Shown here: positions 4,072 to 35,074 of the stretch, in pieces
Layout of the letters: each line of letters starts with the position of its first letter
How positions within the stretch are numbered: the first letter of the stretch is position 1
DNA from: Acidobacteriota bacterium
GTDB lineage: Bacteria > Acidobacteriota > UBA890 > WLXD01
Direction of reading: 5' to 3'
NCBI GenBank assembly: GCA_963666215.2
Contig: CAXWPL010000005.1
Location: 896,001-960,000, forward strand
Length of the DNA: 64,000 nucleotides
Program-made: the position numbers and the translations under genes
Notes under the pieces: model-generated
The model's input: the letters and a program-made list of their open reading frames with translations, nothing else
Told to the model about the DNA's origin: nothing
Databases searched by the model: none

Positions 4072-4668
4072 TTACGCGGTCGGCCGAGCGGCGGAGGCGC
4101 GACGATGTCGCACGATGGCTGCTAACAGCAACAACCCGACCAACCCCAGCCCTAGCCAGAGCGCGCCGCCAGCGCTGCCGGAGTCTCGCAGGAACTCGTG
4201 AAGGCCAGAACCGGTCGCGCTGAACGCGATGGCACCGGGGGCAATACCCACGGCAGTCGTCCACACGAACGTACGCCGGCGCAGTGTTGTGAGACCCGCG
4301 GCCCAGTTGACCGCGGTGAACGCGACCGTGGGCACGAGGCGCAGCAGGAGCAGCGCCGGCCAGCCGGCGGTCAACGCGGCGGCGTCGGCCCTCTCGAGCC
4401 AGCGTGGCGGAACGAACCTGGCGCAGAGTGGCCGGCCACCGCGGCGAGCGATCTCGAAGCTGATCTGCGCGCCGACCAGAGCGAAGAACCAGGTGACCAA
4501 CGAGCCCCACCACGGGCCGAACGCCATACCGTTGACCACCGCGGGAATCTCGGCGGGGATCGGCAAGATCGCCACCACCACGGTGAACAGCGGCGCAGCC
4601 AGGTAGACGAGGTCGCCGGAGCTCTCAATCCAGCTTCCGAGATCCTCCAACACGGCGTAACCGTCCAC
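4072..4668 (-). CDS. VTT/DedA (TVP38/TMEM64) membrane protein
   Basis: GMAFGPWWG, FEIARRGGR and LRLVPTVAFTAVNWAAG motifs; multiple TM segments. Confidence 0.85.
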   Translation of the reverse strand: MDGYAVLEDLGSWIESSGDLVYLAAPLFTVVVAILPIPAEIPAVVNGMAFGPWWGSLVTWFFALVGAQISFEIARRGGRPLCARFVPPRWLERADAAALTAGWPALLLLRLVPTVAFTAVNWAAGLTTLRRRTFVWTTAVGIAPGAIAFSATGSGLHEFLRDSGSAGGALWLGLGLVGLLLLAAIVRHRRASAARPTA

Positions 4669-23834: not shown

Positions 23835-26687
23835 CTAGTGAGCCGCCGAGGCCGCCTGCCCGGCAAGGCGCTCGAAGCTCTCGGCGGTGGCCGCCGACCA
23901 GCCGCCAATCACCTGCATCACACGGCCCGTGTCGTCGAGCAGTACCGACAGCGGAACGCTGATCCGGCCGCCGACGTACAGATCGGCGACGGCCTGGTCT
24001 TGGCTGACATAAATCGGGTACCGCGCACCGATCTGTTCGACGTAGCCGGCCACGGCGCCGAGTGTCTGGGTATCTATGCTGACGCCGACCAGATCAATGC
24101 CCTGTGCGTCGAAGCTGGACTGCAGACCTTGCAACTCGGGCATCTCGAGTCGGCAGGGCACACACCACGTGGCCCAAAGGTTCACCAGCAGCCGCCGGCC
24201 CGGAGACAACAGCTGACGAAGCGACGCCGGGTCGGGCCCGGCGAGCTTCGCGCCATCCGGGATCTGCTCCTTCGTGAGCATCTGAAGGTCGGGGAACACC
24301 TCGCCAGGCCGGAAAGTCAGGCTGGTCAACAACCGCTCTTCGCTTGAGAGCGGGTCCACCAGCGAGAACCGGCTCTCTGCCACCAGCGAGTTGCGGCCAC
24401 CCTCGGTGATCTCGAGCGTCGTTCCCGCCGGAATCCCCGACCGCCACGACCCTGGCAACCGCGACACGCGCTGCTGGGCGCCGCTCGGCCAGGCAACCTC
24501 TATCCACTCCGCCCCCGAGCTGTCGCCAAGACCGAACAGCAACCGCGGATCGTTCTGCGCCAGGAAGCCCGACCCCGCCGATTTCACCGCGGTCTGAATC
24601 CCAGCCGCCGTCTTGACGCGCACCACGGCACCGAAGGCGTCGAGGCCGCTGGCGGCGCCAATCAGGCGAACGCGCACGAAGCCGCGATCGCTGCCAACGT
24701 TGTTGCGGAACAGCTCGTGCCCGTCGCGCTGCAGCGAGACCAGCACGATGTCGGTGTCGCCGTCGTTGTCGAAATCGGCGAAGGCGGCTCCACGCCCGTC
24801 GCCGATTGAATCGAGGCCCGACACGCCGGAGATGTCGATGAGGCGTTCGCCTCGATCGCTCATCCCGAGGTAGTCGCGCTCATAGCCGCTGAACGACATG
24901 CCTTCCTTGAAGATCGCCGCCATGTGATTGTCGGCGTACTCGGCGTTGCCCGCCTCCTCGATTTCTGCCTGGGCAGCCACAACGTGGCGCCAGAAGGTGC
25001 TTCACGTGTCGTCCATCGTCTTGCCCGAGATGAAGCCATTGGGCGTGTAGACGTCCTGCCATCCGTCGTTGTCGAAATCGAAGAAGCCGCCGCCCCAAGC
25101 CCAGCCGGCCGATATGCCGCCGAGATCTTGTGTGGCGTCGGTGAAGCCGCCCTCGCCGTCGCCGCGGTAAATCGAGTTGCCCGAGGCGAGCTTCTTGAGG
25201 AGCTCCGTGTCGGAGGTCGCACCGGGCAACAGGCGGCTGAGGATCCGGTTGCCGGCGGTCGACGACATGTTGGAGACGTGCAGGTCGAGGCTGCCGTCGT
25301 TGTCGAAGTCGCCAAATGACACGCCCATCCCGTTGCCCGGGTCGAGCACGCCACGCTCGGCCGCCACGTCCCGAAAACGGCCGCCCTCGTTGAGGTACAG
25401 GCCGTTCTCGCCGAAATCGTTGGCCACGTACAGGTCCTGGTCGGCATCACCGTCGATGTCGGCGAACGCCGCAGCATAGCTCCAGCGGCCGTCGCGCACT
25501 CCCCACTCGGAGCCAGCCTCCCGAAACCGCAGGTCTCCCTGGTTGATGAACAGCAGGTTCGGGGTGCCGTTGGTCGCTTGGTGCCAGGAGTTGGGCATCA
25601 CCAGGCCGTAGCGATTGTAGGAGGCCACGTAGACATCGCCGAGCCCGTCGCTATTGACATCGGCAACGGCAACGCTGAAGCCAACCGCGTCGCGATCGAC
25701 ACCGGCGCGCAGCGACACATCAAAAAACCGCAGCGCGCCGTCTGGAATCAAACGGTTCTCGAGAAACATCTGACCACCGACCGAGGCCATGAACAGGTCC
25801 TGGTCACCGTCGTTGTCGGCATCGAAGAAAACGGCGCCGGTCGCCGGCGGAGTGAATCCGAGCAGTGACGACTCCGAGACGTCGACGAAGCCACCGTCGC
25901 CGTCGTTCAAGTACAGGACGTTGCGCTCGACACCCGTGGTCAGGAGGTCGACAAGCCCGTCGTTGTCGACGTCGGCAACAGCAGGACCGTGGGCGATGAC
26001 CGTGTCGTTAGGCGCTGTCCCGAAGTTGGGGAAATGGGTGCCGACGCCCGCGGGTAGGGCGACCTCGTCGAACAGGTCGCGCTCGGCCAGCGTCGAGCGC
26101 ATCGATTCGATGTCAACACGCTCGATCTGCCAGCGGCCCTCCCCCACTCCGCGGGCGGTCATTCGCAGCCATGCCACCATCCATTCGCGTCGGCCCCTTC
26201 CATCCCGGCCAACGATCTTGAACTCGACCCGAGCGGTCCCCAGCTCGTTGTCACCAGGCTCGAACATCGACTCCTTCACCTTGAAGCGCGCATCTTCAAT
26301 GGTGCCGAAGTGAGCCAGGATCGCGCCGAAACGATCGAGAAAGTCGTCACGACCTAGCGCCACCGCGGTCGGCTCGAGTGTCCAGTCGTGGCTCCAGAGC
26401 CAGTCGCGCTGTTGCTCCGGCTCCGCTGGCGCGCCTGGCAGCATCGGACTGACGATGGTATCGGCCCAATGCGACGCGATACGGGCCGCGTCGCGATCCC
26501 GTGTGGCCACCGACAACTCGAGCAGATCGTTAGCGAGCGACTCCGAGAGGTTCTCTAGCCTCTCGAGCGCAGCGCGATCGAGGTCTTGTGACGCGCTCGC
26601 TCCGATGAGCGTCGTCAGCGCCAGAAACGCACCGAGAGCAGCCGCTGGTCGTCGTAGCAATGGGTACCCCAAGCGAGCCCGACTCAT
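23835..26687 (-). CDS. Candidate selenoprotein: signal peptide, NTF2-like domain, FG-GAP propeller, ASPIC/UnbV (CRTAC1-like) and TlpA thioredoxin, with an in-frame TGA at 25002-25004
   Basis: ORFs 25002-26861 and 23835-24980 are in the same frame, reading GKTMDDT-TGA-STFWRHVVAAQ; DxDxDGxxD repeats on both sides; GFLAQND.RLLFGLG; C-terminal NLWATWCVPC. Confidence 0.75.
24969..24993 (-). promoter_or_regulatory. Putative bacterial SECIS hairpin
   Basis: mRNA CUG-GC-GCCAC-GUU-GUGGC-U-GC-C-CAG; the apical loop starts with GU 18 nt after the UGA. Confidence 0.6.
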
Positions 26688-26862
26688 GCCCACATCCTGG
26701 CGGGGAGCTTGATTCGTTCCATAATGAGGATAAGCATATCTTGTATTCCACTTATGCGACAACAAACCCAACGCTTGGTGACCGCGTCGCCGTGAGCCGG
26801 CAAGCGGATTCTCGCAGATCGGCACCTTACTCGGGACCCACCTTGCGGGCAACGCCGCCATC

Positions 26863-27567
26863 CTACGCCTTGCTCCGCGTCGCGACAGGATGAGTCAAGG
26901 CGTAACGCCCGTCGGTGTTGTCTGTTTCTTCCTCCCATCGGCTGTTGATCTCGTCGAACTCGACGAGCGCAATCGATAACTCGCTGGCGATCCAGCCGAG
27001 AGTCCAGTCGAAGCTCGCCAGGCCGCAGCGATCGGCGCGTGCCGCCAGCACGTCCCAGTAGCGTGACTCGCCGCGGCGCCGATCCGGATGCCGCAGGGCA
27101 GGCTCGTCCAGAAGGCCGGACTCGAGGATGCGCCGGACGCTCCCGCGGGTGATGCCAAGGCCACCGCCTTGGATCGAAACCTCGGGCATCCGACCCTGCA
27201 GCGTCCCGAAGATCGACTCTCCGGCAGGCAGGCGATGAAAACGTCGCTGCACCACGCTGTCGGGGTCGATCTTCACCAGATAGTCGGTCGGGCGTTCTTC
27301 GAACAGCACGAGCATGCGCTTCACGGCAGCGCCGCCATGCTCAACGGGCAGAAGGCGATCCTCGAGGTGGAGCTCCACACCGAAGCGGTCGGGGAAGGTC
27401 GACAGGAGGGGGTCGCGGTCGCCATCTGAGCGCACGATCACGCGGGCGTCCGGGTAGCAGGCTCGCAGCTCGCCCAAACAGCGCACCGCCTGCCGGGCGT
27501 CGCGGTGGACCGCCATGAACCAGCACAGATCTTGGTCCACGTAGGAGCGGGTCACGGTCGGACTCAC
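26863..27567 (-). CDS. Glycosyltransferase-like hypothetical protein
   Basis: YLVKIDPD (DxD-like) and SIQGGGLGITR resemble GT-A/galactosyltransferase motifs. Confidence 0.5.
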   Translation of the reverse strand: MSPTVTRSYVDQDLCWFMAVHRDARQAVRCLGELRACYPDARVIVRSDGDRDPLLSTFPDRFGVELHLEDRLLPVEHGGAAVKRMLVLFEERPTDYLVKIDPDSVVQRRFHRLPAGESIFGTLQGRMPEVSIQGGGLGITRGSVRRILESGLLDEPALRHPDRRRGESRYWDVLAARADRCGLASFDWTLGWIASELSIALVEFDEINSRWEEETDNTDGRYALTHPVATRSKA

Positions 27568-27699
27568 GGGCGAGAGGGAGGCATCGACGGCGAGCTGTGG
27601 CGTTACCGACGAGCACCTATCCTGCCAGTGTGCGCCTGGTGTCGCCTACTCTCGTGGCGCCCAAAAGGGCACGATCGCCGTCAAGAAGGGTGTGAACAC

Positions 27700-28722
27700 C
27701 CCCCGTTAACGCTTTCCGCGCGGTTCAACTTCCTGCCGTTCGCCGACAACGAAGCTCAACAGGGCATCGAGATCGAAGACAAGCCGGCGCCCGACGGCAC
27801 CTACCGCATGGCTCATCTACGCGCCGTCGACGACGGGTTTTTCCGCACGCTCGGCATCCAGATGCTGGCCGGCAGGCCGCTCGAGCGCGCCGATATGCTG
27901 CCCGGCGTCCCACCGCCGGGCTCCACGGCCCCGGGCGCGGTGGGGGATAGCGCGGTCGCCGCGTCCTCACGGGGGCCGGTCGAGAGCGACCCGGTGAGCG
28001 TGGCCGTGGTCAATCAAACGCTGGCCGAGCGCTACTGGCCCAACGGCGACGCCATCGGCGCACGCTTCCGGGCCGGCGGCGACACGCTGTACCGCGTCGT
28101 CGGGATCGCCCCGGTCCTCAAGTGGCACGGCTTCGACGAGGAGCCGGTGGCCCGCTTCTACATCCCCTACACCGACGATCCGTCGCCACGCGCGGTTTCC
28201 TGCTGCACACCGAGGGCGACCCGCTAGCGCTCGCTCAGAGCGTGCGCCAAGCCGTCCAGCAGCTGGAACCCGACCAGTCCGTCTACGACATCCAGACGAT
28301 GTCGCAACGGCTGCACACGTCGGTGGCGGCCACCCGATTCTCGCTGATGACGCTGATGTCATTCGCGGCGCTCGCCCTGGCGCTCGCCGTGGTCGGAACG
28401 TACGCGGTTTTCTCCTGGCTCGTCAGCCGTCGTTCGGCCGAGATCGGCATCCGCATGGCACTCGGCGCCCGAGCCAGTCAGGTGCAGCGCCTGATGCTCG
28501 GGCAAACCGTTTTCCTTGCTGCGCTCGGCGCCGGGCTCGCCATCTTGGGGTCGCGCCTACTCGCGGGCGTGGTCCTCGAGCTACCTGTTCGAGGTAACTC
28601 CGGGCAACCCGCTCGTGCTCGCGTCGGTAACCGGCCTGCTCGTTGGCGCTGCAGTGCTGGCCACCTGGGCGCCGGCACGCCGCGCGGCGAGTATCGAGCC
28701 GGCCATCGCGCTACGCGACTGA
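27700..28722 (+). pseudogene. C-terminal fragment of an ADOP/MacB-type permease, frameshifted near 28195
   Basis: FFRTLGIQMLAGR, VAVVNQTLAERYWP, EIGIRMALGA, PARRAASIEPAIALRD spread over three frames; N-terminal half absent. Confidence 0.8.
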
Positions 28723-28827
28723 CGGCGGCCGAGTCGGGAGCGTGCTGGTTGGCGGTCGCAATCGAGCGCCGCCCGGCCCACGACACTTCCCCCACGGGCC
28801 GCTGACGTCGTCGCCAGCGGTCTCGGG

Positions 28828-29568
28828 CTACGACAGAAGCTTCTCGCGTTGTTCCATGCGTCGCAGCCCGAGGAAGGCGAACAGGCAACCAATCGCGAAG
28901 ATCCCCAGGCGATTGAGCAGCACGCGCTCGAGCCAGTAGGGGTTGTTGGTGCCGAGCGGCGGCCTGAACGGGTCGAGGAACAACCAGAAGCTCGTCTCCG
29001 CCAGGAGCTCCGCGCTCAGCAGCACCACGAACAACGACGCCGAGGCAAGCATCGCCGCGGTGTTGGCGCCGCGCACGTACACCGAGTACATGAAGGTCAG
29101 GTTGGCGACGAGGAAGGCGGGCAGGAAAGCGTTCAGCGCCACGCGTACGAAGGGGAACTCGGCGAAGAAGAAGTAGCCTACCGTACTGATCACCAGAAGG
29201 GTGGCGACAAGCACGGCGTAGAGCGCCAGCAGGCGCACCATCCAAATCGCGTAGTGCGCGCTCGCGGTGCCGAAGAGGGTTTCGAGAGTCTGATGGTCGC
29301 GCTCCCTGGCGAGCAGATCCATCGTCAGGTAAATCGCCAGCACGGTGCCAGGGATCTCGACCAGGATGATGCGCGCGTCACTGGCGTTGAATCCCTCGCT
29401 GGGATCGTAGACGACGATGGCGTAGAGAATCGCGTAGTAGATCAGCAGACCTATCGACATGAACAAGGGCTTGCGCCGGAAAGAGATACGGAAGCTCAGC
29501 CGCGCCAGACGCCAGGTGCTCCGCAGCACCTCGCCCCAGCTCAGCAGCCTGGCCTCTGTGGTGCTCAC
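28828..29568 (-). CDS. ABC-2-like membrane permease
   Basis: About 6 TM segments; DLLARERDHQTLETLF is an ABC-2 cytoplasmic loop pattern; GTGA overlap with the upstream gene. Confidence 0.7.
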   Translation of the reverse strand: MSTTEARLLSWGEVLRSTWRLARLSFRISFRRKPLFMSIGLLIYYAILYAIVVYDPSEGFNASDARIILVEIPGTVLAIYLTMDLLARERDHQTLETLFGTASAHYAIWMVRLLALYAVLVATLLVISTVGYFFFAEFPFVRVALNAFLPAFLVANLTFMYSVYVRGANTAAMLASASLFVVLLSAELLAETSFWLFLDPFRPPLGTNNPYWLERVLLNRLGIFAIGCLFAFLGLRRMEQREKLLS

Positions 29569-32500
29569 GCCGGGCTCCGTTCGCTCTCGAGCAGGTAGAT
29601 GTAGGCGTCCTCGAGCGTCGGCTCGACGTGTTGCGCCTCGACACCCTCCACCTGCGTGGCGCGGGCACTCAGGAAGCGGGCGCGAATACCGTCGGGCGTC
29701 CGCAGCTGGGTGACTACCTTGGCGTTCGTATCGCCCGAGAGCGCGTCGAGACGCTCCTCATCGACGATCGCCTCCCAAACCACTCCAGCCGCCCTCTCTC
29801 TCATTTCTTCGGGGCTGCCGATGTAAAGGATCTTGCCGCGATCGAGCACCGCCAGGCGATTGCAGCTGCCGGCGACGTCCTCGACGATGTGTGTCGAGAA
29901 GATGACGATGCGCTCCTTGCTCAGACTCGCCAACAGGTTGCGAAAGCGGATGCGCTCGACCGGGTCGAGCCCCGCCGTGGGCTCGTCGACGACGACGACC
30001 TGCGGCGTGTGCAGCAAGGTCTGCGCGATCCCGACGCGCTGCCGCATGCCGCCCGAGAACGAGCCGATCACGTCCTCCTGGCGATCTGCCAGATGCACCT
30101 GCTCCAGACACCACTGCACGCGCTCGCGCCGCTCCTCGTCGCCGCGAAAGCCCTCGAGCAGGGCGCGGTACTCGAGGTACTCACACGCGGTCATGTGGTC
30201 GTAGAGGCCGAAGCGTTGCGGCAGGTAGCCGATGACACCGTGAAGACTGCCAAAATCGGCGACCCGCTTGCCGTTGAGCAGCACCGAACCATGCGTGGGT
30301 TCGAGCACCTGACAGACGATGCGCATGAGCGTTGTCTTGCCGGCGCCGTTGGGTCCCAGGAGGCCGAACATACCGCGGCCGATCTCGAGGCTGACTCCGG
30401 CGAGAGCGGCGAACGGGGGCCGCCGTACACCGATGATGGGCACCCGGCCGGCCGCCGCGTAGCTGCGTCGGCGTAACCAGCGTAGCGGCCGCGGCCCACC
30501 CTCGATCTTGTCCGGATTGACCTTGCCGCTACGCACCCTGGCGGCGAGCCAGCGAACAGCCCCCACCGCCAGCCAGATAACAGCGGTGGCGATGGTGACG
30601 GAAGTCAGTCCAACACGCGAGTGGATGTAGGCGAACACGACACCTGCGACAACGACGCGCCCCAGAGCCCGCAGACGCACCGCACCGGGCGGCACCAGCG
30701 CCCCAACAGCACCCGCCATGTTGAGCACCAGGCCCCAGGTCAGCAGGCTGAGAAGATAGACCCAGACAGGATCCTCGAGATAGCTGTGCAGGAACACGAC
30801 GAGCCCCAGGAACAACGACTTGAACACCAACCCCTGGCGAATCTCAGCCGCCGCGACGGGTTCCAGCCCCGCAGCGCGGCGCAGCTCCATGCCGCGCTCG
30901 AAGCGCCCCCATTCGCGGCGGAAGCGGCCCGGCGCGCCATAAAGCTTGGTCAGAGTACGTAGCCTTATGGAGAGGATGGGCTCGTTACGCAGATCTGCAG
31001 CAACGCGCATCCCACGCACGCGCAGCGTCAGCCAGACGAGCGTGAGACAGGCGAACCACAGTGGCAGCACGAGCAGCGAGGTCCAGAACACGCTCTCGTA
31101 GCGGGCATCGAAAACGTAGACCAGCGCCGCGGTAGCGAGCGTCGCCGTGCCGATCCCCAGCCAGCCGATACCACGCAGCCACTCTTTGACCTGGTCGATT
31201 CCCAAGTAGGCCACGGGGATGAAGATCAGCGTCGAGACAGTCGAAACGGCCAGCCCGCCGAGGATCGTGATGGCGAACGGCGGCCACACCTCGTAGTCGA
31301 CGCCCCTTTCGAGCGCCAGCGGCAAAACACCCAGAAGCGTCGTGGCCGAGGTCATCAGCACCGGTCGCACCCGCGAGCGCCCAGCAGCGACCACAGCGCG
31401 CTCACGCCCGAAGCCGCGCGTGCGCAATCTCGAAATCGCATCAATGAGGATGATGCCGTTGTTGACCGCGATCCCGATGAGCACGACGAGGCCGAGCATC
31501 GCCATCGGCGCCGCCTGTGAGGTGAGCCCCGTTCCCGAGAGGAGGAGCGCGAGAATGGCCCCGATCGCCGCGGGTGGCAGCGTGGCGAAGACGACGATCG
31601 GCGAAGAGAACGACTCGAACAGCGCCGCCAGAATCATGTACACGAGGATCGCCGCAACCCCCATCATCCAGTAGTAGACCGTATCTACCACGGCCTCGAT
31701 GACCTCGATCGTGTAGCCAGTCGGCAGTGCCAAGCCCTGGATAACGGATCGCGTCAACTGCCGGGCGGAGTCGAGTCGCGGCTGCGAGCCGGTAACCTCC
31801 TCGAGGAACGCGTAGCTGACAATCACCCGCCGTGCCTGGTTCGTGCGCAAGATCGAGCGACGCCCCTCGTCGATGCGCAGACGCGCCAGCTCCCCCATCG
31901 CCGTCGCGCTGCCAGCGGAGTTCAACACCGGCAGCTGCGACAGATCGGCGAGACGCAGACCTCTGTTGGCGGAGCTACCGGGGCCGCCAACCTCGCCGCC
32001 ATCGAGATCAAACGGGCGCACCTCGATCACCGTCTCGGTGCCGTCCGCCTCGAGGAACGCAGTCGCAGTGGTGAACCCCTCCACATCGGATTCGCTCACC
32101 GCGTCGAGGAGCGTCTGGATCTCGACATCGCGATCGAACATGGCCATGGCGTCGGGCACGATTTGCACCTCGGGACCACTGCGCTCGACGTCGATCTGAA
32201 TCGAGTCGGGGTCGATATCCTCGACCTCCTCGAGACGAAATGCGAGATCCTCCGCGATCATCTGCATCGTCGCGAAGTCCTGGCCACGGATCACCGCGGT
32301 CTCGCCAGTGCTCCCGAGGTCAAGACTGAAGCCGCCCCCCCCACCGCCTGCGGGCCTGCCACCGCCGGCGGGCCCGGCAGCGCTGGCTGGTGGGTCGAAA
32401 CCAACAACCGCATCGGCCTCCGCGAACTGGTCGAATCCCTCGGCAAGACGATCCTGCATAGCGCTAACGCCGAGTCCGCCCGGACGCTCGTTGCGATCGA

Positions 32501-34304
32501 GCACGCTCACGGTGATGCTCCCCTGCCCCTCCTGAACGCTGCTGGTGAACCCCGCGACGCCCGCGAGATCGCCGACAGCCTCCTCAACCCGGCGCACCAC
32601 CGCGTCGGTGGCGTCGAGCGTGGCGCCCTCCGGCAGCTCGACGTAGACAGGGAACTGGCTCTCGGCCGGCACGCTCTGTTGCTGCAGCAGCAGGAAGAAG
32701 GCGGCTATGAGCGTCACCACCAGCGCCACGCCGATCGTCAGCGTCACCTGCACGCGATGCCGCAACGCGGTCTTGAGCAGCACCGTGTACATCTGCAGAA
32801 GCCGACCCGGGCGCCGTGGCGGCGGAGCGCCCCGCGACAGCGTACGCGAACCGAGCATGGGCACGAGCGTGAGCGCAACGAACAACGACGCCGCGAGTGG
32901 GAACCCGATCGGCATCGCCAGGTCGCTGAGGATGTCCTGGAAGTCGCTCTGAATGAACACCACCGGCAGGAAGACGGCTACGGTCGTGGCGGTTGACGCG
33001 ATCACGGCGCGGCGAACTTCGGCGGTACCATCGCGCGCCGCCTCCGCGGGTTTCTTGCCGCGCTCGTAGTGCTTGAAGATGCTCTCCAGGACAACGATTC
33101 CGTTGTCCGCCAGCATCCCCATCGCCAGCGCCAGCCCGCACAGCGACAGCACGTTCAGTGAAAGGTCGCCGGCGTACATCAGGTTGAACGTCACCAGCAG
33201 CGACACCGGAATGGCCACAACGAGCACCGACACGAAGCGCAGGCTGCGCAGAAAAACGAAGAGCACGACCAGGCTCAGCAGCAGGCCGATCACCGCCGCC
33301 TGCGTGAGCGTTCCCAGCGCCACTTCCATCAAGTCGGCCTGGTTGGCGCCGACGAGCAGTTGCGTGCCCGCGCCGGCGAGCTCGGAGTTGAGCCGCTCCA
33401 CCGCCGCCACCACGGCCTCCGAGACCTCGAGCAGATTCGCCTCGTCTTCCTTCATGATGCGGATGCTGACGGCCGACAGGCCGTTGACGCGACTCAGGTC
33501 GGTGCGCTGCTGCTCGCCATAGCGCACTTCGGCAATGTCGTCGAGACGCAGCGGGATCGTGCGATCGATCATCACCGCGCGCACCTGGCTCAACGTGGTG
33601 AACTGGCCCTGGATGCTCACCGGGTAGGCGCTGCTCCCGCGGTGCACTTCGCCCAGATAGGCCCGCGGTCGGTTGGCCGCGGTGATCGCCGTATTCACTC
33701 GGGTGGCCGTGAGCCCATAGGCCTCGAGCGCGTCTCGATTGAGGATCACCAACACGGCACGCCGCTGACCACCGAGTACCGTGGCGCTGACCACACCCTC
33801 AACCGCCTCGAGCTGCGGCCGAACATTCTGCTCGGTGAACTCGCGCAGCCAGTTGAGGTCGCCCTCGCCGAGCACCTGCAACTCCATGACCACGGCGGTC
33901 AAGATCGAAGTGTCGAAGCGCAGGACGCTGATCTGTGTCTGCTCCGGGAGCTGCGGCTGCAGGCGGTCCATACGGCTCTGCACCTGCAGCAGCGCGAACT
34001 TCATGTCGGTTGCGGGGGCGAACGAGACGCGCACCGTCGCGCGCCCCTGGCTAGCGTTCGACTCGAGCGCCACCACGCCCTGGAGCACACCGACCTCTCC
34101 CTCGGCAGGAATCAGCAGCTCACGCTCGGCCTGCTCCGGCGACAACGTGCGCTGGGTAAGCTGTACGAAGATCTCCGGGTAGACAACCTCGGGAAGCAGC
34201 TCAACCCGCAGCCGATCGAGCGACGCCAGCCCGAGCAAGCTCACGGCGAGAAAGAACATCGCCGTCGCGACGGGGCGGCGAATGGCGAGCGCCGAAATGC
34301 TCAT
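29565..34304 (-). CDS. AcrB/SwrC-type RND permease fused to a C-terminal ABC ATPase (~1579 aa)
   Basis: IRRPVAT, GMLADNGIVVLE, AVNNGIILID, RVRPVLMTS; then Walker A GPNGAGKT, Q-loop GYLPQ, signature FSGGMRQ, Walker B VVVVDEP and H-loop STH. Confidence 0.9.
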   Translation of the reverse strand: MSISALAIRRPVATAMFFLAVSLLGLASLDRLRVELLPEVVYPEIFVQLTQRTLSPEQAERELLIPAEGEVGVLQGVVALESNASQGRATVRVSFAPATDMKFALLQVQSRMDRLQPQLPEQTQISVLRFDTSILTAVVMELQVLGEGDLNWLREFTEQNVRPQLEAVEGVVSATVLGGQRRAVLVILNRDALEAYGLTATRVNTAITAANRPRAYLGEVHRGSSAYPVSIQGQFTTLSQVRAVMIDRTIPLRLDDIAEVRYGEQQRTDLSRVNGLSAVSIRIMKEDEANLLEVSEAVVAAVERLNSELAGAGTQLLVGANQADLMEVALGTLTQAAVIGLLLSLVVLFVFLRSLRFVSVLVVAIPVSLLVTFNLMYAGDLSLNVLSLCGLALAMGMLADNGIVVLESIFKHYERGKKPAEAARDGTAEVRRAVIASTATTVAVFLPVVFIQSDFQDILSDLAMPIGFPLAASLFVALTLVPMLGSRTLSRGAPPPRRPGRLLQMYTVLLKTALRHRVQVTLTIGVALVVTLIAAFFLLLQQQSVPAESQFPVYVELPEGATLDATDAVVRRVEEAVGDLAGVAGFTSSVQEGQGSITVSVLDRNERPGGLGVSAMQDRLAEGFDQFAEADAVVGFDPPASAAGPAGGGRPAGGGGGGFSLDLGSTGETAVIRGQDFATMQMIAEDLAFRLEEVEDIDPDSIQIDVERSGPEVQIVPDAMAMFDRDVEIQTLLDAVSESDVEGFTTATAFLEADGTETVIEVRPFDLDGGEVGGPGSSANRGLRLADLSQLPVLNSAGSATAMGELARLRIDEGRRSILRTNQARRVIVSYAFLEEVTGSQPRLDSARQLTRSVIQGLALPTGYTIEVIEAVVDTVYYWMMGVAAILVYMILAALFESFSSPIVVFATLPPAAIGAILALLLSGTGLTSQAAPMAMLGLVVLIGIAVNNGIILIDAISRLRTRGFGRERAVVAAGRSRVRPVLMTSATTLLGVLPLALERGVDYEVWPPFAITILGGLAVSTVSTLIFIPVAYLGIDQVKEWLRGIGWLGIGTATLATAALVYVFDARYESVFWTSLLVLPLWFACLTLVWLTLRVRGMRVAADLRNEPILSIRLRTLTKLYGAPGRFRREWGRFERGMELRRAAGLEPVAAAEIRQGLVFKSLFLGLVVFLHSYLEDPVWVYLLSLLTWGLVLNMAGAVGALVPPGAVRLRALGRVVVAGVVFAYIHSRVGLTSVTIATAVIWLAVGAVRWLAARVRSGKVNPDKIEGGPRPLRWLRRRSYAAAGRVPIIGVRRPPFAALAGVSLEIGRGMFGLLGPNGAGKTTLMRIVCQVLEPTHGSVLLNGKRVADFGSLHGVIGYLPQRFGLYDHMTACEYLEYRALLEGFRGDEERRERVQWCLEQVHLADRQEDVIGSFSGGMRQRVGIAQTLLHTPQVVVVDEPTAGLDPVERIRFRNLLASLSKERIVIFSTHIVEDVAGSCNRLAVLDRGKILYIGSPEEMRERAAGVVWEAIVDEERLDALSGDTNAKVVTQLRTPDGIRARFLSARATQVEGVEAQHVEPTLEDAYIYLLESERSPA

Positions 34305-35074
34305 TCCTTCGCGGCGCTGCCGGCGGCACGGGCGCGGGATCTTCCCGACCAAATCCCGTCGATCAGCTCGTACGCCACCGGAATGAGCACGAGCGTCATG
34401 ACGGTCGACGTCACCAGCCCGCCAATCACAGCGATGGCCATCGGGGCCCGCAAACGCGCCCCCTCGCCGACGCCAATGGCCATCGGCAGCAGCGCCAGCA
34501 CGGTGGTGGCGCTGGTCATCAGAATCGGCCGCAACCGATCCTGCGTGGCCTGAACGACCGCTTGGCGTAAGACCATCAGGTCTCGCTGCGGGCCGCGCAG
34601 CTGGTTGATTCGGTCGACGAGAATAATCGCGTCGTTCACCGCGATGCCGCCGAGCATGATGATGCCGATCAACGCCATCACGCTGAGCGGCTCGCCGAGG
34701 GCCGAGAAAGCAACGACCACGCCGATGCCTGCCAACGGCACCGTGAGCATGACCGTGAACGGGTGTACGAGCGACTCGAAGAGCGACGCCATCACCATGT
34801 AAACCAGTAGCATCGACAGCGCCAGGGCAAAGCCAAGGCTCTGAAACGATTCGGCGCGCTCGCGCTCCTCGCCGCCGAGCTGCACGCCGTACCCGGTCGG
34901 CAGCACGACGTCGGCGAGCGTCGCCTCGACCTGACGTGCCGCGCTGCCGAGCGTGGCCCCCTCCACGAGATATCCCGAGATCCGTCCCATGCGCCGTTGC
35001 CCATCGCGCAGAATCTCGCGCGGGCCCTCCACGATGCGCGGTTCGGCGATGTCGCCAAGGGTGAGCACAAGCAA
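34301..35074 (-). pseudogene. C-terminal ~255 aa of a second RND permease (5' part missing)
   Basis: LVYMVMASLFES, GIAVNDAIILVD, RLRPILMTS, PMAIAVIGGL; ATGA overlap with the RND-ABC gene. Confidence 0.85.

Follow-up and report, generated by a model that had tools for sequence, protein, structure and literature searches.

Proteins of the CRTAC1/ASPIC-UnbV family combine an FG-GAP beta-propeller with a UnbV_ASPIC domain; to our knowledge their biochemical function is not known, and we know of no member that is a selenoprotein. Selenoproteins almost always have cysteine homologues. Among the bacterial selenoproteins already described are the UGC-containing TlpA and the ResA-like WAxxUGC (NF041054) proteins, which belong to a thioredoxin-fold subfamily and carry selenocysteine (Sec) inside the thioredoxin motif. 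In its Table 1, a review of prokaryotic selenoproteins published in 2026 counts 119 families and subfamilies; it also gives a model of the bacterial Sec insertion sequence (SECIS), with an apical loop of 3-5 nt starting with (C)GU, 4-16 bp in the upper stem, a UGA-to-loop distance of 16-37 nt, and a minimum free energy (MFE) of at most -7.5 kcal/mol (PMC13188914). Here we analysed a stretch of 64,000 nt from an Acidobacteriota bacterium (GCA_963666215.2, contig CAXWPL010000005.1, positions 896,001 to 960,000; the window), in which the gene of a CRTAC1-like protein is interrupted by an in-frame TGA. A reading made from the letters of the window (the sequence-only reading) had proposed a new selenoprotein. 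Our analyses predict that this codon is very probably read as Sec and that the gene belongs to a real selenoprotein family.

Two open reading frames on the minus strand of the window (26861..25002, 619 aa, and 24980..23835, 381 aa) lie in a common frame with the TGA as their sole separator, as the sequence-only reading had described. The peptide around the codon is ...GFISGKTMDDT-TGA-STFWRHVVAAQ..., and the FG-GAP repeat FADFDNDGDTD is present past the TGA, so the propeller does go on downstream as had been claimed. The gene likely starts at ATG 26687, because this start matches a 561-aa N-terminal fragment on record (P0032) and the N-termini of the orthologues; the upstream ATG at 26861 is less likely. 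With the start at 26687 the gene has 950 codons, the length first estimated, a single in-frame TGA and a terminator that is not TGA (Table 1). The TGA is genuine and not an assembly error, because it is unchanged in Logan contigs of four runs, each run from a different study, and every one of these contigs spans window positions 24500-25500 in one piece with 0 differences and 0 gaps over 1001 nt; the check in independent sequence data that the earlier reading had suggested thus came out positive. TGA is not reassigned in this genome either, because it ends 49% of the open frames of at least 400 codons.

Table 1 Features of the candidate selenoprotein gene, in window coordinates.
Feature	Position	Strand	Details
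Whole coding sequence	23835..26687	-	950 codons including one predicted Sec-TGA, plus non-TGA stop 23835..23837; alternative ATG 26861
Signal-peptide-like or membrane-anchor-like N-terminus, residues 1-32	26592..26687	-	Basic, then hydrophobic stretch; AlphaFold pLDDT <50
N-terminal alpha+beta domain, residues 38-205	26073..26576	-	pLDDT ~90; no Pfam family covers it
FG-GAP beta-propeller, CRTAC1 type	24693..26000	-	Pfam FG-GAP_3 (E 9e-36, 5 stretches) and FG-GAP; Foldseek CRTAC1
Helical-hairpin insert in the propeller, residues 555-600	24888..25025	-	Motif DT-U-S-x-F-W-R-H-V-V; AlphaFold helices 562-573 and 582-593
In-frame TGA, predicted to be read as Sec (residue 562 of the 950-aa protein)	25002..25004	-	Column conservation in homologues
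SECIS-like hairpin	24969..24993	-	Core stem 24988..24985 / 24979..24976; apical loop 24984..24980 (C-GUU-G), G and U invariant
UnbV_ASPIC domain	24453..24638	-	Pfam PF07593, E 2.7e-15, 56.5 bits against a cut-off of 23.4
C-terminal TlpA/ResA-like thioredoxin-fold domain	23910..24269	-	Pfam AhpC-TSA and Redoxin; CVPC at 24164..24153 (Cys842, Cys845)

We profiled the TGA among homologues in four sets of sequences. A match at E<=1e-30 was found in 22 of 41 related genomes. In an alignment of the loci fetched from related genomes, all motif-bearing orthologues and paralogues (21/21, 30-72% identity) have the TGA in one column, at which seven ordinary CRTAC1-like paralogues have a gap. One of the motif-bearing sequences is a paralogue from the same genome (39% identity) with the TGA at the homologous position (DVDT-TGA-PTLWRSVV) and a C-terminal thioredoxin-like domain with the motif WCIAC. 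Among 80 loci from named genomes, ordinary members, which have a gap at the site, account for 64, four are further TGA forms (three Acidobacteriota metagenome-assembled genomes (MAGs) and one Verrucomicrobiota MAG), and two carry the motif with Ser (TCC; L077) or Gly (GGC; L078). A scan of metagenomes with the motif region returned 80 loci, 77 of them with the motif, and TGA was present in 82/82 motif instances. In an even sample of the phylum, 80 of 401 genomes matched at E<=1e-60; 70 of the 97 matches (in 58 genomes) contain one TGA and 27 contain none, counts that include the unpublished genomes G076 and G171, on which alone none of the conclusions depends, and in which the position of the TGA was verified just for the loci fetched earlier. 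Finally, full-length orthologues (53) can be aligned through the TGA over 850 aa or more. The in-frame UGA is conserved together with the coding sequence downstream of it, as is expected of a selenoprotein gene, and the same-column TGA that the sequence-only reading had proposed to look for is present in more than 100 homologous genes.

Some TGA forms occur in pairs. The same-genome paralogue is found in duplicate on contigs C1 and C4 (L017, G000:C1:764954-769141; L018, G000:C4:466223-470410), identical at 4187 of 4188 positions, which points either to a recent duplication event or to a duplicate created by the assembly. Five metagenome loci (L182, L185, L191, L192, and L194) carry tandem paralogous Sec genes, one of the DT-U-SLFWRHVV type and one of the DL-U-SFFWRQVVSQSP type, both with TGA and with ~2.9 kb between the two TGAs. 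A distant subfamily (L065 from genome G039 and L083 from the Verrucomicrobiota MAG) has the sequence EEPDG-U-SC/PC-[VL]W, with a U-x-C motif in which Cys stands two residues past Sec. The hairpin of these two loci lies ~6 nt farther downstream, and by eye it shows compensatory differences between them.

The UGA is followed, beginning 9 nt downstream, by the 25-nt hairpin CUGGCGCCAC[GUU]GUGGCUGCCCAG, in which the G of the loop is about 17-19 nt from the UGA. The sequence-only reading had held that this hairpin fits the bacterial SECIS consensus. This is the case: the loop (C-GUU-G), the spacing, the upper stem (5 bp, with more pairs beyond bulges), and the energy of the 25 nt alone (-11.7 kcal/mol) all agree with the published model (PMC13188914). 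Like the E. coli fdhF-type SECIS and the consensus bacterial element, it is a coding-sequence hairpin directly downstream of the UGA, with G-U opening a small apical loop. Unlike the fdhF-type SECIS, its stem is short (a core of 4-5 bp with clade-specific outer pairs), and it has no sequence likeness to fdhF.

Over 88 distinct sequences, the four core pairs of the hairpin are kept in 86-87, and the G and U of the loop are invariant. Pair 24-34 covaries (CG 59, UA 22, GU 4, AU 2, and other 1). It joins the third position of an Arg codon with the first position of an Ala/Thr/Ser codon, and a synonymous change is therefore coupled to the replacement of an amino acid. In the stem, Val is encoded by GTG in 88/88 sequences, against a background in which GTG makes up 37.8% of the Val codons over 68 orthologues, and the neighbouring Val codon in the loop is GTC in 54, GTG in 26, and GTT in 8. 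This within-gene control shows selection on the RNA. Both the conservation and the covariation that had been named as tests of the hairpin were found.

The genome from which the window comes (5 contigs, 4.65 Mb, 91.7% complete) has the selA, selB, selC, and selD genes that a bacterial selenoprotein gene requires, and for which the sequence-only reading had suggested a search. SelA (437.6 bits) and SelD (341 bits; L011, G000:C2:219892-220839) are encoded, the SelB wing domain was found within a 674-aa open frame, and the one tRNA-Sec scores 67.8 bits against an Rfam gathering score of 47 and has the anticodon TCA. SelA is above the cut-off in 37 of the 41 related genomes, and the sole TGA-form genome without it (G023) is 69% complete.

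The SelD gene has one in-frame TGA, by which SelD is itself a selenoprotein, and the SelB gene lies ~6 kb off on the same contig. The orthologue and selA are near each other on the same strand in two genomes that belong to one related genus (G001:C1:1154760-1158285 and G007:C9:31890-38712), with ~1.1 kb (G001) and ~4.4 kb (G007) between the matched parts. In the window's genome, selA and the candidate selenoprotein gene are on different contigs.

We modelled the read-through protein with AlphaFold2 from a 30-row alignment. The mean predicted local distance difference test (pLDDT) score is 88.6, with values of 85-92 around the Sec site, and the predicted template modelling score (pTM) is 0.87. 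The model runs from a disordered N-terminus (residues 1-32) through an alpha+beta domain (38-205), the propeller, and the UnbV_ASPIC sandwich to a thioredoxin fold (832-941). With its helices followed by a long curved sheet, the modelled alpha+beta domain may resemble NTF2/SnoaL-like folds. The signal-like N-terminus and the TlpA-type domain suggest that the protein is probably exported.

The FG-GAP propeller and the UnbV_ASPIC domain place the protein in the CRTAC1/ASPIC-UnbV family. FG-GAP_3, FG-GAP, and UnbV_ASPIC are all above the Pfam cut-offs, the best Foldseek match is the murine CRTAC1 crystal structure 9etn_A (E 3e-28, TM 0.73 on the target), and non-Sec relatives are named 'CRTAC1 family protein' by NCBI. 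Ordinary members of the family, in contrast, lack the N-terminal alpha+beta domain, the fused thioredoxin-fold domain, and the insert of ~45 residues that bears the DT-U-SxFWRxVV motif (the gap seen in 64 of the 80 named-genome loci). In the model, the two helices 562-573 and 582-593 form this insert, which has no counterpart in ordinary family members, and Sec562 is the first residue of the former.

The C-terminal 120 residues have the thioredoxin fold and CxxC motif of a TlpA/ResA domain. They match AhpC-TSA (48.3 bits, cut-off 26) and Redoxin (46.8 bits, cut-off 26.6), carry the W-x-x-W-C-x-P-C pattern as WATWCVPC, and superpose on the ResA, DsbE, and TlpA structures that Foldseek matched. 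Those are free membrane-anchored proteins, whereas here the fold is a domain of a 950-aa protein. NCBIfam has no whole-protein model, and its TlpA/ResA domain matches are below threshold; we rejected equivalence to TlpA (68.4 against 230) and to ResA (66.2 against 170), the likeness being at the domain level only. A ResA-like WAxxUGC selenoprotein (NF041054) was rejected as well (49.4 against a cut-off of 300). The thioredoxin motif of the window protein is CVPC without Sec, and the predicted Sec lies 280 residues upstream, in the propeller.

We compared the Sec forms and their non-Sec homologues for the presence of this domain. Among 104 Sec-form instances, a downstream W..CxxC is present in 92/92 that could be evaluated, and the other 12 are cut by the end of the locus. 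CxxC is present in 53/53 full-length Sec forms, and in 29 of these the two motif Cys are the sole Cys past residue 40; in the window protein, U562, C842, and C845 are the full set. For the non-Sec forms, the protein-level tally covers the best 120 of 6429 protein matches, which together with the loci gave 24 motif-bearing homologues. Fourteen of them end after the UnbV domain and have no thioredoxin domain, four keep it (the Ser, Leu, Val, and Cys forms), and six are long forms with TPR fusions and no CxxC by pattern, two of which have a precomputed AhpC-TSA match. Sec and the CxxC domain thus co-occur obligatorily.

We propose that the TGA would be decoded by SelB and tRNA-Sec, aided by the downstream hairpin. 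The product would be a single protein of ~950 residues, with a signal-like N-terminus, the alpha+beta domain, a CRTAC1-type propeller with UnbV_ASPIC, and a TlpA/ResA-like CxxC domain. As the most likely mechanism, the protein may act as an extracytoplasmic oxidoreductase with the selenol as its redox-active centre. Selenium oxidised in a turnover (Se-OH or Se-S) would be returned to the reduced state by the fused CxxC domain, which would itself be recharged by a thiol-reductant system of the membrane. We put a redox relay between Sec and CxxC at even odds. As a whole, decoding of the TGA as Sec in a single, probably exported protein is the best explanation of the locus, with a probability of roughly 0.85. 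Every test proposed by the sequence-only reading that was run came out in favour of its candidate selenoprotein.

Several observations weigh against this explanation. In a context of 71 nt, the folding energy is no better than that of shuffled sequences (z 0.08), and the MFE fold differs from the hairpin. It is therefore conservation, and not energy, that supports the hairpin. The covariation is limited to one pair, many of the sequences are close kin, and RNAalifold predicted 3 pairs only from 24 sequences. Non-Sec genes as DNA number two, with the stem broken in L077 and kept in L078; these two make up the hairpin control, and the closest non-Sec forms that share the FWRHVVA peptide (P0011, P0013, and P0014) are not among the 80 loci. 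The sole RNA runs found (X19 and X20) contained 0.04 of the sampled words. No neighbouring gene is conserved beside the orthologues in the 100 loci searched, which leaves no operon partner or pathway pointer. The residues that replace Sec also count on this side. The 24 non-Sec homologues have Ser in 11, Asn in 5, Ala in 2, and Cys, Thr, Asp, Gly, Leu, and Val in one each, and three close relatives differ at the site (Ser, Leu, and Val), which is odd for an essential catalytic position. Moreover, SelA is still encoded where the Ser form (L077) and the Gly form (L078) occur, so these replacements are not explained by loss of the machinery and are probably functional divergences.

The sequence-only reading had named variable residues at the site, with TGA and Cys never seen, as an outcome that would count against it. 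Variable residues were indeed found, but abundant TGA forms outweigh them, and Cys is present at the Sec position in one of the 24 (P0022). A quick FastTree tree of 78 sequences with the motif, in which two ordinary paralogues served as the root and some branches are long, places Sec forms at the base of each of the two main clades. Non-Sec forms branch from within at several points, and the tree implies no fewer than 7 state changes. We interpret this as Sec being ancestral to the motif-bearing clade, with probably repeated later losses in which the redox partner domain usually disappeared as well. The SelD/SPS1 paralogues are reported to offer a precedent, in which non-Cys residues took the Sec position after functional divergence (PMC4561486). 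SelD/SPS1 is an unrelated protein family, however, and in the propeller family Sec was replaced on several occasions.

Gene callers and public annotation treat the TGA as a stop, as it normally is in this genome, and many entries of 554-650 aa end at the site, such as a 576-aa NCBI 'VCBS repeat-containing protein' (P0109). The gene would then be a pseudogene, or a split gene with a 561-aa N-terminal fragment and a separately started C-terminal fragment. However, more than 100 homologues, some with as little as 30% identity, all keep the two parts in a common frame and directly adjoining. A stop here would cut the propeller within its helical insert, and the part downstream lacks a conserved start. 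In the AlphaFold model, the read-through protein also folds confidently as one unit, and the TGA is followed by a SECIS-type hairpin under synonymous-site constraint. A true stop is in our view extremely improbable. Read-through could also insert an amino acid other than Sec, by an opal-suppressor tRNA (an allo-tRNA or a selC*-type tRNA-Cys) or by near-cognate insertion of Ser, Cys, or Trp. Such allo-tRNA and selC*-type tRNA-Cys species have been reported in Acidobacteria and Deltaproteobacteria, and Ser is the commonest residue at the site in the non-TGA homologues. Suppressor tRNAs that resemble tRNA-Sec have been reported, some of them in Acidobacteria (PMC5389517). In the window's genome, however, ARAGORN found 50 tRNAs of which tRNA-Sec alone has a stop-reading (UCA) anticodon, in a search that may miss tRNAs of 8/4 or 9/3 structure. 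Eleven sub-threshold tRNA-Sec-like Rfam matches were also obtained, and the checked ones (5/11) are ordinary Ser, Leu, Met, Thr, Gly, and Tyr tRNAs. The full selA/selB/selD set and the fit of the hairpin to the SelB-type SECIS model point the same way, and insertion of another amino acid is very improbable. Even taken together, the alternatives to Sec decoding have only a small chance of being right.

The main functional rival accepts Sec and assigns the selenol the role of a soft metal or metalloid ligand, with the TlpA-like domain only keeping the selenol reduced. FG-GAP propellers are metal-binding scaffolds, and TlpA, which keeps the copper-binding cysteines of ScoI and CoxB reduced, would be the model for this role. 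Foldseek matched the C-terminal domain to, among others, mixed-disulfide complexes of TlpA with ScoI and with CoxB (4txo and 4txv), and residues with O/N ligands (Ser, Asn, Asp, and Thr) are tolerated at the site in the non-Sec forms. However, no second conserved Cys, His, or Met ligand was identified beside Sec, the position at the N-terminus of a helix is typical of redox-active Cys or Sec, and the gene neighbourhood gives no hint of metal handling. We consider a metal-ligand role unlikely. The redox reading can also be taken further, although here we are doubtful. The protein may be the first beta-propeller selenoenzyme, extracytoplasmic and self-recharging, with a Sec centre, a fused TlpA-type reductase, and perhaps chemistry beyond the reach of cysteine. 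In Acidobacteriota-rich environments, such a protein could account for a major use of selenium that has gone unnoticed, and it could be a blind spot shared by all discovery pipelines based on Sec and Cys. If the chemistry were impossible for cysteine, Sec would for this reason be replaced by inert residues and not by Cys.

We searched the literature for earlier reports of such a family. FG-GAP, VCBS, ASPIC/UnbV, and CRTAC1 have no entry among the 119 catalogued families (PMC13188914 Table 1), which agrees with the first claim that the fold lies outside the classical selenoprotein families. The terms FG-GAP, VCBS, ASPIC, CRTAC, and propeller are likewise absent from the main texts of PMC13188914, deep-Sep, and BSepDB, the supplementary lists of which might hold the family. 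A full-text literature search gave no report linking selenoprotein or selenocysteine to FG-GAP, VCBS, UnbV, ASPIC, or CRTAC1. By these comparisons, this would be a new selenoprotein family of the standard decoding type, with a new fold and an atypical replacement pattern. The homology filter of deep-Sep, according to its authors, requires known Sec or Cys homologues, and selenoproteins without Cys homologues may be missed. The family would have escaped earlier surveys because its Cys homologues are nearly absent and predictors need them, and predictors with this requirement may still hide similar families.

The CRTAC1-like FG-GAP beta-propeller would join the folds known to carry Sec. Hundreds of public genes would be mis-annotated, stored as two truncated 'VCBS repeat' or 'CRTAC1' fragments. 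If the prediction is right, the Sec form occurs in about 1 in 7 of the sampled genomes of the phylum (58/401) and in many metagenome contigs. A Sec subfamily with a redox centre and a built-in reductase could also offer the first experimental entry point to the function of CRTAC1/ASPIC-UnbV proteins.

The genes around the candidate selenoprotein gene encode an M48 peptidase, an OmpR-type/TPR regulator, a 234-aa protein without a family, and MacB/FtsX pieces. The 234-aa open frame (window 26863-27567, minus strand) lies directly upstream of the selenoprotein gene, matches no Pfam family, and has no counterpart beside the orthologues (100 loci). On the plus strand (27505-28805), overlapping open frames in different frames encode part of a MacB periplasmic core (27505..28227) and part of an FtsX permease (28122..28805), and together they look like one ABC-permease gene broken by a frameshift. 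Farther along on the minus strand (29565-34352), an open frame of 1595 aa contains a complete AcrB/RND transporter (residues 19-1051) and an ABC-transporter ATPase domain (1319-1460). Either this fusion is real and unusual, or two genes have been run together through loss of a stop or through a frameshift.

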